Shown here piece after piece: positions 11,268-12,315 of a stretch of DNA of 64,000 nucleotides; the first letter of the stretch is position 1; each line of letters begins with the position of its first letter. The DNA comes from a phage. Made by a program: the position numbers and the translations under genes. The DNA lies in sequence record PX068456.1; one strand, 5' to 3'. Below the pieces are notes generated by a model. That model did no database searches. It was not told the DNA's origin and saw only the letters and a list, made by a program, of their open reading frames with translations.

Positions 11268-11342
11268 TGGTGCTCCCACAAGGACTCGAACCCTGATAAG
11301 TTGCTTACAAGGCAACCGTAATAGCCGTTATACGATAGGAGC
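11268..11342 (-). tRNA. tRNA-Thr (anticodon TGT)
   Basis: encoded CCA, acceptor gctccca/taggagc, T-arm caagg/actcgaa/ccctg, perfect anticodon stem gttgc/gcaac with loop CTTGTAA. Confidence 0.65.
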
Positions 11343-11419: not shown

Positions 11420-11504
11420 TTTGGCGATGGATCAAGGATTTGAACCTTGCTAGAACTTTCGTTCACGGATTAACAGTCCGTCGCCCAACCACTAGGCCAA
11501 TCCA
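11420..11504 (-). tRNA. type II (Ser-like architecture) tRNA whose anticodon reads GTT
   Basis: encoded CCA, discriminator G, perfect acceptor gatggat/atccatc, 3-bp D-stem, perfect anticodon stem acgga/tccgt with loop CTGTTAA, 15-nt variable arm forming a GAAC/GTTC hairpin. Confidence 0.45.
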
Positions 11505-11511
11505 TCTTTAA

Positions 11512-11598
11512 TTTGGTGCAGGTAGTTGGACTCGAACCAACGAAGCCCCGAAGGGCAGGAGATTTACAGTCTCCAGCAATTGCCGCTATGCGATACCT
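11512..11598 (-). tRNA. tRNA-Tyr (anticodon GTA), type II
   Basis: encoded CCA, T-arm gttgg/actcgaa/ccaac, perfect anticodon stem ggaga/tctcc with loop CTGTAAA, 16-nt variable arm. Confidence 0.65.
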
Positions 11599-11603
11599 AC
11601 GTG

Positions 11604-11679
11604 TTTGGTACATCGTGAAGGATTCGAACCTTCGACCTTGGAGTTAAAAGCCCCTTGCTCTACCAACTAAGCTAACGAT
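11604..11679 (-). tRNA. tRNA-Lys (anticodon TTT)
   Basis: encoded CCA, perfect acceptor acatcgt/acgatgt, T-arm gaagg/attcgaa/ccttc, anticodon loop CTTTTAA, D-loop AGTTGGTA. Confidence 0.65.
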
Positions 11680-11815
11680 GTATAAATTATCTTTAAAATA
11701 GCCAGTGTTTGCGGCACTTGACTATGAAGTATTAGGGTATCGGTAAGATGGTGGAGGCCATCTGCCGAAAGTTTACTCTATTAAAGTAAGATTACAAGCT
11801 ACATTAAAGATAACT

Positions 11816-11901
11816 TGGCGGTAGATGTAGGACTTGAACCTACACGCCGTTTCCGACGACAGTTTAGCAAACTGTTGTGGCTACCATTTCACCAATCTAC
11901 C
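11816..11901 (-). tRNA. tRNA-Ser (anticodon GCT), type II
   Basis: encoded CCA, discriminator G, perfect acceptor ggtagat/atctacc, T-arm gtagg/acttgaa/cctac, anticodon stem acagt/actgt with loop TTGCTAA. Confidence 0.65.
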
Positions 11902-11909
11902 GTTCTTAA

Positions 11910-12110
11910 TTATTCAAAACAACCGGAATCTTTTTGTTCTGCTTTTACCATACGAATATTTTTACCATCTTCAGATTGTTGAAGATTAGAATACTCATAA
12001 ACAACTTTATTATCTACAATCTTAACTCCGGTAACAACCTGTCCAATAGTTTTATAATTCATAAAGCTCCTAGTTGAATTTGGAGGAAGATAATGGAGTC
12101 GAACCATCAC
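11910..12110 (-). CDS. hypothetical small protein embedded in the tRNA array
   Basis: 66-aa ORF; its 3' region may overlap the tRNA-Ser(TGA) call, so one of the two may be wrong. Confidence 0.3.
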   Translation of the reverse strand: MMVRLHYLPPNSTRSFMNYKTIGQVVTGVKIVDNKVVYEYSNLQQSEDGKNIRMVKAEQKDSGCFE

Positions 12111-12170
12111 CGTATCGCTACAATGGGCCAGGGTTCAAACCTGGTTGCGCACCGCTGCGCCCTACCTTCC
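12081..12170 (-). tRNA. tRNA-Ser (anticodon TGA), type II, about 90 nt
   Basis: encoded CCA, T-loop agtcgaa, anticodon stem ccagg/cctgg with loop TTTGAAC, about 19-nt variable arm; D-arm parse uncertain. Confidence 0.45.
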
Positions 12171-12233: not shown

Positions 12234-12315
12234 TGGTCGGGGTGACAGGATTCGAACCTGCATACTCCAATTACTCGGTTAACGCCTGATTAGAAGTCAG
12301 GTGAGATACACCCCG
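12234..12315 (-). tRNA. tRNA-like, anticodon arm reads TCT (Arg) but no normal D-arm and 23 nt between anticodon and T arms
   Basis: encoded CCA, perfect acceptor cggggtg/caccccg, T-arm acagg/attcgaa/cctgc, stem-loop cctga/CTTCTAA/tcagg. Confidence 0.4.

Follow-up and report, generated by a model that had tools for sequence, protein, structure and literature searches.

We identified a tRNA gene in a phage of Escherichia coli that combines the anticodon of tRNA-Asn (GUU) with a long, hairpin-forming variable arm. It is a genuine and conserved phage gene. Compensatory changes in the arm stem across related phages show that the extra arm is maintained by selection as an RNA helix. Judging from the sequence and from published identity rules, the tRNA probably accepts asparagine, and would thus be a functional tRNA-Asn in a type II-like frame. 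Among the phage tRNA-Asn genes that we sampled, ~12% (about one in eight) have long arms; such forms are rare in cellular genomes.

To our knowledge, textbooks confine long variable arms in bacteria to the tRNAs for Leu, Ser, Tyr and Sec. The annotation of the gene as tRNA-Asn is already known: the copy in phage phi92 (PHI92_t008) is so annotated, as are the copies in hundreds of other records. What seems to be new, as far as the literature could be searched, is the long-arm architecture, its spread among phages and its rarity in cells. No description of these was found in the searchable full-text literature, which covers subscription journals (including the T5 tRNA work of the 1980s-90s) thinly.

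The tRNA-Asn gene and its surroundings

The window, by which we mean the whole 64,000-nucleotide stretch of DNA analysed (record PX068456.1), comes from a phi92-like E. coli phage assigned to Justusliebigvirus (Stephanstirmvirinae). The region shares 99.9% identity with Escherichia phage pEC-M2929-1AR.1 and ~97% with phi92. ARAGORN identified an array of 16 tRNA genes on the minus strand at 9.8-12.7 kb of the window, in which the gene described here is the only one for tRNA-Asn (Table 1). Genes for tRNA-Lys(UUU), tRNA-Tyr(GUA) and tRNA-Asn(GUU) form a block with spacers of 5 nt (Lys-Tyr) and 7 nt (Tyr-Asn). No promoter-like site was seen inside this block, and strong promoter-like sites are predicted farther upstream on the same strand (12355>12327 and 12215>12186). 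The three genes are probably co-transcribed.

Table 1. Positions in the window of the tRNA-Asn(GUU) gene, its parts and neighbouring tRNA genes (A1, alignment of 21 sequences of the tRNA-Asn clade of the window).
Feature	Position	Strand	Details and evidence
Complete tRNA-Asn(GUU) gene with long variable arm	11422..11506	-	85 nt (82 nt plus encoded CCA); ARAGORN, Rfam, minimum free energy fold; annotated tRNA-Asn in phi92 and relatives
Acceptor stem, 5' strand GAUGGAU	11500..11506	-	Partner strand 11426..11432; ARAGORN drawing; 7/7 pairs covary in A1
Anticodon arm ACGGA-CUGUUAA-UCCGU	11465..11481	-	Anticodon GUU at 11472..11474
Variable region	11450..11464	-	Hairpin GAAC-GAAA-GUUC at 11453..11464, then unpaired UAG at 11450..11452; ARAGORN drawing, minimum free energy fold
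T arm CAAGG-UUCAAAU-CCUUG	11433..11449	-	Rfam, ARAGORN, covariation in A1
Discriminator G73	11425	-
Encoded CCA	11422..11424	-
tRNA-Lys(UUU)	11606..11681	-	Upstream of the Asn gene; ARAGORN
tRNA-Tyr(GUA)	11514..11600	-	Directly upstream of the Asn gene; ARAGORN
tRNA-Thr(UGU)	11268..11342	-	Downstream of the Asn gene, past a 79-nt spacer; ARAGORN
tRNA-Ser(GCU)	11816..11901		ARAGORN

The Rfam tRNA model (RF00005) matches the gene with 56.5 bits, compared with a gathering score of 29, over model positions 1-71. Its alignment puts the loop CUGUUAA in the canonical place and places 12 inserted nt within the variable region. In the ARAGORN drawing the acceptor stem (7 bp, including G1-C72, A2-U71 and U3-A70) and the anticodon stem (5 bp) are perfect, the discriminator is G and the T arm is canonical. 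The D stem has 3 bp in ARAGORN and 4 bp in Rfam, where U13-G22 is counted, and the D loop, with only 7 nt, is of class I-like size. Reading from its 5' end, the RNA is GAUGGAU-UG-GCCU-AGUGGUU-GGGC-G-ACGGA-CUGUUAA-UCCGU, followed by GAACGAAAGUUCUAG-CAAGG-UUCAAAU-CCUUG-AUCCAUC-G-CCA.

The minimum free energy structure predicted by ViennaRNA (-29.5 kcal/mol) is the cloverleaf plus an extra, fifth hairpin, with z = -3.44; none of 200 shuffled sequences was as stable. A variable region of more than 10 nt with a stem-loop is one mark of class II tRNAs, next to a 3-bp D stem whose loop is enlarged, and the region in this tRNA is 15 nt long and forms such a stem-loop. The hairpin begins directly 3' of the anticodon stem, with no unpaired base on its 5' side.

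A preliminary description, made from the letters of the sequence, had proposed a long-armed, type II-like tRNA with anticodon GUU and discriminator G, and on this ARAGORN, Rfam and the predicted fold agree. The gene it described is real, although the interval given for it (11420-11504) lies 2 nt off the ARAGORN call, which is on the minus strand. The parts that it listed (7-bp acceptor stem, 3-bp D stem, 15-nt arm with a GAAC/GTTC hairpin, T arm and the loop CTGTTAA) match the ARAGORN drawing, and the Ser(GCU) gene that it reported elsewhere in the array is likewise an ARAGORN call. It also allowed that the anticodon loop might have been mis-assigned; none of the programs run on the gene (ARAGORN, Rfam, ViennaRNA) places the anticodon anywhere other than at GUU.

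Conservation of the arm and its spread among phages

At least 21 phage records contain the 85-nt gene at 100% identity, and 53 contain it at 99% or more. Identity falls to 93% in Klebsiella phage KP13-26, 85% in Salmonella phage PVP-SE1 (Vequintavirinae) and ~75% in Phapecoctavirus. Homologous genes of 82-85 nt occur in T5-like Demerecviridae, namely Lindwurm, Proteus phage Stubb and Providencia phage PSTCR5, and the Lindwurm-type long-arm tRNA-Asn is present in ~280 T5-like records. All of these relatives retain the loop CUGUUAA (UUGUUAA in Lindwurm), G73 and the extra hairpin, and the anticodon GUU is kept in relatives with as little as 75% identity. The combination of GUU and arm thus spans three enterobacterial phage lineages, in addition to more than 100 diverse viral sequences.

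The arm stem takes several forms in these relatives (GAAC/GUUC, GAGA/UCUC, GAGU/ACUC, GUUC/GAAC, GUUC/GGAC and GUC/GAC), all with the loop GAAA. In alignment A1 the arm helix (helix 4) is paired in 98.7% of cells, its closing G-C is invariant in 21/21 sequences, and three of its four pairs show double-sided changes (in 9, 13 and 5 cells). For the structure as a whole, 94.6% of cells are paired compared with 64.5% in shuffled alignments, and the covariation score is 0.751 compared with 0.186, a value of 0.751 being reached by none of 500 shuffles. Pairing falls to 35-49% when the partners are shifted by 1-3 columns. Support for the arm helix is on par with that for the anticodon and T stems, and all five helices are intact and covary.

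We scanned IMG/VR for the loop CTGTTAA followed, at a distance greater than a type I tRNA allows, by GGTTCRAATCC, and obtained at least 120 loci. Among the matches listed, 103-105 are distinct long (80-94 nt) tRNA(GTT) genes confirmed by ARAGORN, with very diverse acceptor and D arms. A perfect hairpin with a stem of 3 bp or more is present in the variable region of 95 of these 105 (mean 55 and maximum 73 in shuffles), with stems of 3-4 bp in 89/95 and GNRA loops in 51/95, again among the matches listed.

A fairer viral scan, in which short gaps were also allowed, returned at least 120 loci, 109 of them with short forms only and 11 with long-arm forms. Among the matches listed, the variable region is 10 nt or longer in 12/100 distinct tRNA-Asn genes compared with 16/503 (3.2%) in the pooled remaining class I isotypes, an enrichment for Asn of about fourfold. 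Asn is the most frequent long-armed isotype in the sampled phage sets. That only Asn has the long arm was considered and rejected: among the matches listed, phage tRNAs for Cys, His, Ile, Val and Met carry long arms in about 5-14% of cases (small numbers), other isotypes overall at 2-14% in the fairer sample, and long arms were also found in phage tRNA-Lys and tRNA-Asp. The proportions from the viral and cellular scans describe a sample and not a census, and the scans demanded a particular T loop.

In cellular genomes the long-gap pattern gave at least 120 matches, and a long tRNA(GTT) was called in 10 of the 120 loci listed. The remaining matches listed include 18 cyanobacterial tRNA-Ser genes, in which CTGTTAA lies across the border between anticodon stem and arm, archaeal tRNA-Asn genes with an intron-like insert 3' of the anticodon loop, and 84 loci at which no tRNA was called. 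Of the five bacterial-type cases listed, three lie in metagenome-assembled genome (MAG) contigs with arrays of 11-17 tRNAs, which are probably phage DNA; the other two come from MAGs of a Prevotellaceae bacterium and of an alphaproteobacterium.

Asparagine or serine identity

Asn identity in bacteria resides in the three anticodon bases and G73, a set that suffices and can be transplanted into tRNA-Lys (PMC9976931). [quoted passage not shown] G2-C71 is described as "absolutely conserved" in E. coli tRNA-Ser, and C2-G71 counts as an antideterminant for SerRS, as does G73 for TyrRS and LeuRS (PMC9976931).

The tRNA of the window has G34, U35, U36 and G73, the full Asn identity set. With the asn genes of E. 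coli K-12 as the reference, its anticodon arm is identical to that of tRNA-Asn (GCGGA-CUGUUAA-UCCGU) at 16 of 17 positions, the sole difference being at position 27; the arms of KP13-26 and Phapecoctavirus are identical at 17/17. A comparison of anticodon-arm identity to E. coli between long and short viral tRNA-Asn (means of 13.2 and 11.3 of 17) was set aside as uninterpretable, as the hosts of the metagenomic sequences are unknown.

Of the features associated with Ser identity, the long arm, G73 and G1-C72 are present, and G2-C71 is absent, position 2-71 being A-U. In phage tRNA-Ser, G1-C72 occurs in 90/102 and G2-C71 in 97/102. The geometry of the arm, whose orientation depends on stem length and on how many flanking bases are unpaired, also differs from that of Ser: the arm of the window tRNA pairs from its first base, over 4 bp, and leaves 3 bases unpaired on the 3' side, whereas phage tRNA-Ser arms have stems of 4-7 bp (mostly 5-7) and 0-2 unpaired 3' bases in 87/96. 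The preliminary view that the gene has the architecture and identity set of tRNA-Ser is partly supported: the arm, G73 and a body weakly nearest to Ser agree with it, but a Ser identity set is not supported, given pair 2-71 and the way in which the arm is set. Tyr identity does not fit either, with G73 in place of A73 and GUU in place of GUA. Nor is the frame of type I, the variable region having 15 nt instead of a 4-5-nt loop; such a loop is typical of tRNA-Asn, but is not a published AsnRS determinant.

Across the long-arm viral tRNA(GUU) genes (all counts for the matches listed), G73 is present in 94/105. Position 1-72 is U-A in 56 and G-C in 48, compared with 78 and 38 in short phage tRNA-Asn, and position 2-71 is G-C in 39 and C-G in 37, compared with 56 and 52. 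This spectrum of acceptor pairs mirrors that of short phage tRNA-Asn and is unlike that of tRNA-Ser. In a comparison of bodies, made after removal of the variable region and masking of the anticodon, the nearest to the long-arm tRNA-Asn among the matches listed was short tRNA-Asn in 42/105, tRNA-Ser in 17, tRNA-Lys in 15 and tRNA-Tyr in 9. For the clade of the window the nearest body is tRNA-Ser, only one or two score points ahead of Gln, Lys and Asn, and class II ancestry of this clade is thus possible. The nearest bodies for the T5-like clade are tRNA-Lys or tRNA-Tyr.

We infer from the published identity rules that the asparaginyl-tRNA synthetase of the host would charge the phage tRNA with Asn, since it carries every known bacterial Asn determinant in an anticodon arm near-identical to that of the host. 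The charged tRNA would then decode AAC and AAU as Asn during infection. For SerRS it would be expected to be a poor substrate, given its lack of G2-C71 and a short arm placed differently from those of tRNA-Ser, and LeuRS and TyrRS would be excluded by G73. Class II synthetases such as AsnRS approach the tRNA from the side of the variable loop, and the arm might therefore get in the way of AsnRS. That phage tRNA-Lys and tRNA-Asp, the substrates of its sister enzymes, can also carry long arms suggests by analogy that AsnRS may tolerate the arm. Codon use is consistent with Asn: AAC/AAT codons in NrdA and NrdB of the window align with Asn in the E. coli proteins at 16/53 positions and with Ser at 5/53, the rate for Asn being about the level of overall identity between these proteins (29-37%). 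Thus, the phage genes are written for Asn at AAC/AAT.

A Ser-accepting tRNA with an Asn anticodon, which could insert Ser at AAC/AAU, had been put forward in the preliminary description. In this reading SerRS would grip the arm and disregard the anticodon, and Ser would be inserted, by design or incidentally, fully or partly (dual identity). The reading would draw on the long arm, G73, G1-C72 and C11-G24 of the window tRNA, on the independence of Ser identity from the anticodon and the mistranslation by anticodon mutants of tRNA-Ser (PMC9976931), on the marginally Ser-like body of the clade and on T5-like versions that have G1-C72, G2-C71 and G73. Some serylation is possible, given that SerRS reads shape, that G73, G1-C72 and the arm are present and that the arm of the window's own Ser(GCU) is equally small. 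Against this, the conserved G2-C71 is replaced by A2-U71, the geometry of the arm is unlike Ser, and the three features G1-C72, G2-C71 and G73 occur together in 13/105 of the long-arm tRNA-Asn genes listed compared with 66/103 tRNA-Ser; U1-A72 (56/105) and the SerRS antideterminant C2-G71 (37/105) are both common in the former. An anticodon arm near-identical to that of host tRNA-Asn would be purposeless in a SerRS substrate, and Ser insertion would be damaging where AAY stands at Asn positions, yet the gene is kept in hundreds of lytic phages. With the full Asn identity set and the alignment of AAY codons, Ser insertion is left without support, and we regard this reading as improbable. The suggestion of a mutated Ser(GCU) duplicate is not supported either. 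An origin by sequencing error, or as a decaying pseudogene derived from Ser(GCU), would take a single base change from GCU to GUU, but dozens of genomes, sequenced independently, share the sequence, GUU is kept at 75-93% identity, the five helices are intact and covary, and the anticodon stem bears no relation to the one in the neighbouring Ser(GCU). The comparison with related phages revealed no one-base difference pointing to a sequencing error. Given the identity of these copies and the conservation of GUU, G73 and the hairpin over three lineages, a sequencing error or one-off Ser(GCU) mutant is excluded, and the probability that the gene is an artefact of either kind is negligible.

Role of the arm and comparison with known tRNAs

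For a tRNA that accepts Asn, the purpose of the arm is a matter of speculation. It may alter the shape of the tRNA at the junction of the anticodon and D stems. The altered shape could block host factors that act on ordinary tRNA-Asn (e.g., tRNA-cleaving defence nucleases), and the anticodon arm would stay unchanged for AsnRS, the ribosome and modification enzymes. Such shielding of the phage tRNA by a change of shape is our leading guess, offered tentatively. A wider proposal, that phages possess a largely virus-specific class of normally short-armed tRNAs with long arms, in which the GNRA-capped arm is an anti-defence device against PARIS/AriB-like nucleases, seems to us rather unlikely. As long arms occur in other phage isotypes, the arm may instead reflect general tolerance or shared ancestry and not be specific to Asn; it could be a legacy or a neutral addition put up with in isotypes whose synthetases chiefly read the anticodon. 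A GNRA loop as a hallmark of the Asn arm was rejected, such loops being common in phage Ser (35/96) and Leu (32/74) arms.

[quoted passage not shown] The target of retron-Eco7 is tRNA-Tyr (PMC11555353). The Lys and Thr tRNAs of the window carry substitutions at positions 39-41 with respect to the motif UAAUC|A. No such substitution at the AriB site is found in the window tRNA-Asn, in which U36-A-A-U-C-C41 is the host sequence, and its arm hairpin begins two bases past the cleavage site. The reference T5 tRNA-Asn is an ordinary 78-nt molecule with a short arm and a heavily altered anticodon stem. Tequintavirus thus holds both designs, the short loop and altered stem of T5 and the host-like stem plus arm of the Lindwurm type, which fits the arm as an alternative means of nuclease escape, although this evidence is circumstantial.

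Published rescue from PARIS was obtained with the reference T5 tRNA-Asn (PMC12409363), which is this short-arm form, and we rejected these data as functional evidence for the arm. The short-arm tRNA is likewise the subject of a note in the T5 record, according to which swapping the anticodon does not yield an amber suppressor. The need of phage Bas34 (SelmaRatti, MZ501103) for T5 tRNA-Asn despite its own copy was considered and found uninformative about the arm, as the Bas34 copy is annotated at 77 nt and is short (ARAGORN makes no call there).

The arm could also be without function in a tRNA that accepts Asn: a class II ancestor (Ser- or Tyr-like) would have been converted through changes in its anticodon arm and discriminator, with the arm persisting through co-evolution with the core and AsnRS indifferent to it. 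Such a conversion would be easy, Asn identity being simple and transplantable (PMC9976931), and it is consistent with bodies nearest to Ser in the window clade and to Lys or Tyr in the T5-like clade, with a D arm of Ser/Leu/Tyr type such as GCCGAGUGGUUUAAGGC in many viral long-arm tRNA-Asn, with the Tyr-like geometry of the arm and with long arms in several other anticodon-read isotypes of phage arrays. However, many long-arm tRNA-Asn have typical Asn bodies (U1-A72 and 5' ends of the form UCC..., with short tRNA-Asn nearest in the 42/105 listed), for which an arm gained by an Asn tRNA is a more fitting origin than descent from Ser or Tyr. The persistence of the arm with compensatory changes in three enterobacterial phage lineages and its roughly fourfold enrichment in Asn (12/100 compared with 16/503 among the matches listed) also speak against a functionless arm, an explanation that we consider possible but doubtful. 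A further alternative is a decoy, in which the shape of the tRNA would titrate a tRNA-targeting nuclease of the host or another tRNA-binding factor, with translation secondary. Inhibition of AriB through competition by overexpressed viral tRNAs has been raised (PMC12409363), and the anticodon arm does mimic the host target. But all features of a translatable tRNA are present (a perfect acceptor stem, encoded CCA, canonical T loop and G73), this is the sole tRNA-Asn of a 16-gene array, and there is no sign of exclusion from charging; we think a decoy very improbable.

The long-armed tRNA-Asn is conserved in hundreds of sequenced genomes of coliphages and Salmonella phages, and the phages concerned (relatives of phi92, rV5 and T5) are used in therapy and in research on defence systems. 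If the tRNA is charged with Asn, AsnRS tolerates a class II frame, which bears on the rules of tRNA identity and on tRNA engineering. If the arm protects against tRNA nucleases of the host, it would be a new mode of phage counter-defence, a second route beside substitutions in the anticodon stem-loop. If the tRNA is charged with Ser, common lytic phages would carry a natural mistranslating tRNA.

The tRNA-Asn of E. coli (asnT/U/V/W) and that of the window share GUU, the loop CUGUUAA, G26, G73 and the published AsnRS determinants. They differ in the variable region, a 5-nt loop (AUGUC) in E. coli and a 15-nt hairpin in the window. The window tRNA has G1-C72, U8-G9 and a 7-nt D loop without A21, whereas the E. 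coli tRNA has U1-A72 and U8-A9, and outside the anticodon arm the body of the window clade is not recognisably Asn-like. With tRNA-Ser, including Ser(GCU) of the window, the tRNA-Asn shares the long arm, G73, G1-C72 and U8-G9. The variable region of this Ser(GCU) also has 15 nt, a 4-bp stem and a GAAA loop, but is shifted by one base (0 unpaired 5' and 3 unpaired 3' arm bases in tRNA-Asn compared with 1 and 2 in Ser(GCU)), and its anticodon stem (ACAGU/ACUGU) is unrelated. A tRNA(GUU) of an alphaproteobacterial MAG is, in contrast to that of the window, truly Ser-like, with the acceptor GGAGGUG, G2-C71 and a longer arm.

Bacterial tRNA-Tyr comes closest to the long Asn arms in geometry, with a stem of 3-4 bp and ~3 unpaired 3' bases. 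The anticodons of tRNA-Tyr(GUA) and tRNA-Asn(GUU) are one base apart and their genes adjoin in the window, but the neighbouring tRNA-Tyr has low sequence similarity to tRNA-Asn(GUU). Phage tRNA-Tyr has A73 in 68/70 and GNRA arm loops in 0/60, compared with GNRA loops in 51/95 of the long Asn arms listed. Allo-tRNAs, and Ser-type tRNAs with mutated anticodons, likewise join a long arm to an anticodon foreign to Leu, Ser and Tyr; the acceptor/T-stem arrangement of allo-tRNAs is 8/4 or 9/3 (PMC5389517), and that of the window tRNA-Asn is the normal 7/5. The phage tRNAs known to escape nucleases (Lys, Thr and Asn of T5 against AriB, and Tyr against retron-Eco7) represent the same set of isoacceptors that is clustered in the window. 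These tRNAs carry substitutions in the anticodon stem-loop, whereas the window tRNA-Asn differs from that of the host by its extra arm instead.

Further tRNA-like genes in the window

The array contains a tRNA-like gene that was detected by Rfam alone, with no ARAGORN call. The phi92 record has no annotation at the corresponding position, which falls between its Ser(TGA) and Leu(TAA) genes. The gene has an acceptor stem of 7 bp, a normal T arm, an encoded CCA and an anticodon arm (CCUGA-CUUCUAA-UCAGG) with the anticodon UCU (Arg). The D stem is missing, and the long variable region includes a hairpin (CCGA-GUAA-UUGG). The MFE z is -2.46. A promoter-like site of near-consensus sequence (TTGACA-17-TATAGT, with TG; 12355>12327) is located directly upstream. 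We also identified a tRNA-Ser(UGA) for which the Rfam tRNA-Sec model outscores the general tRNA model, yet remains below threshold (35.3 bits vs 47). The counterpart of this gene is labelled a pseudogene in the phi92 record.

Features of the window and of compared loci
Feature	Location	Coordinates	Strand	Details
tRNA-like gene	window	12237..12315	-	Rfam, 40 bits vs gathering score 29
tRNA-Ser(UGA)	window	12081..12170	-	90 nt; Rfam
tRNA-Lys(UUU)	window	11606..11681	-	positions 36-41, U36-A-A-C-U-C41
tRNA-Thr(UGU)	window	11268..11342	-	positions 36-41, U36-A-A-G-C-A41
tRNA-Glu(UUC)	Klebsiella phage KP13-26 (L001)	2305..2393		89 nt; extra arm GUAG-GAAA-CUAC
Annotated 'tRNA-Lys'	Salmonella phage PVP-SE1 (L002)	1348..1433		86 nt
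'RNA3, putative tRNA-like RNA'	phage T5, NC_005859 (L357)	8878..8950		record annotation; directly downstream of short tRNA-Asn
Ser-bodied tRNA	Alphaproteobacteria MAG CAWBON010000023.1 (L302)	3976..4064	-	anticodon loop CUGUUAA

Unusual tRNAs in other phages

Among the matches listed for the viral loci (L008-L236), many isotypes that normally have a short arm include phage tRNAs with a long variable arm (defined as at least 10 nt), for example Cys, Met, Thr, Ile, Lys, Glu, His, Asp, Trp and Val. Among these same matches, no long arms were identified for Phe or Gln, and almost none for Gly. On normally short-armed isotypes, the long arms often have a GNRA cap, and a Ser-like D arm (GCCGAGUGGUUgAAGGC) is often present. 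An extra arm is also found in the tRNA-Glu of KP13-26. In the annotated 'tRNA-Lys' of PVP-SE1, which ARAGORN is unable to assign, approximately 12 surplus bases separate the D arm from a normal anticodon arm (UCCGA-CUUUUAA-UCGGA). In addition to RNA3, the T5 tRNA region encodes several further stable RNAs of unknown function.

Some phage records carry doubtful labels. Four 'Campylobacter phage' records (MG065639, MG065645, MG065656 and MG065689; 146 kb each, host C. jejuni) share 97.6% identity with the window region, and a 1.5 kb 'Listeria phage' record (OR847827) contains a T5-like long-arm tRNA-Asn. All five are probably mislabelled or contaminated entries.

tRNA(GUU) variants in cellular contigs

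The alphaproteobacterial Ser-bodied tRNA exemplifies the appearance of a genuine Ser-type tRNA(GUU). Its body is that of a typical tRNA-Ser (acceptor GGAGGUG, G1-C72, G2-C71, G73, D arm GCCGAGCGGUCAAGGC and a 19-nt arm). The tRNA may mistranslate, or its anticodon may stem from a C35-to-U assembly error. Archaeal tRNA-Asn genes in MAG contigs (L266, L278, L321, L325, L350 and others) have inserts of 12-20 nt immediately 3' of the anticodon loop (e.g., CUCGG-CUGUUAA-[CCCAGGCAGACA]-CCGAG), which presumably represent introns located at position 37/38 or close to it. When ARAGORN is run in bacterial mode, some of these genes are read as long tRNAs of the Asn, Phe or 'Stop' type.

[quoted passage not shown] The 27-43 pair of the anticodon stem is non-canonical in the window tRNA-Lys(UUU). 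Compared with the motif of their E. coli counterparts, both window tRNAs are altered at positions 39-41, the same positions that are changed in the AriB-resistant tRNA-Lys of T5.
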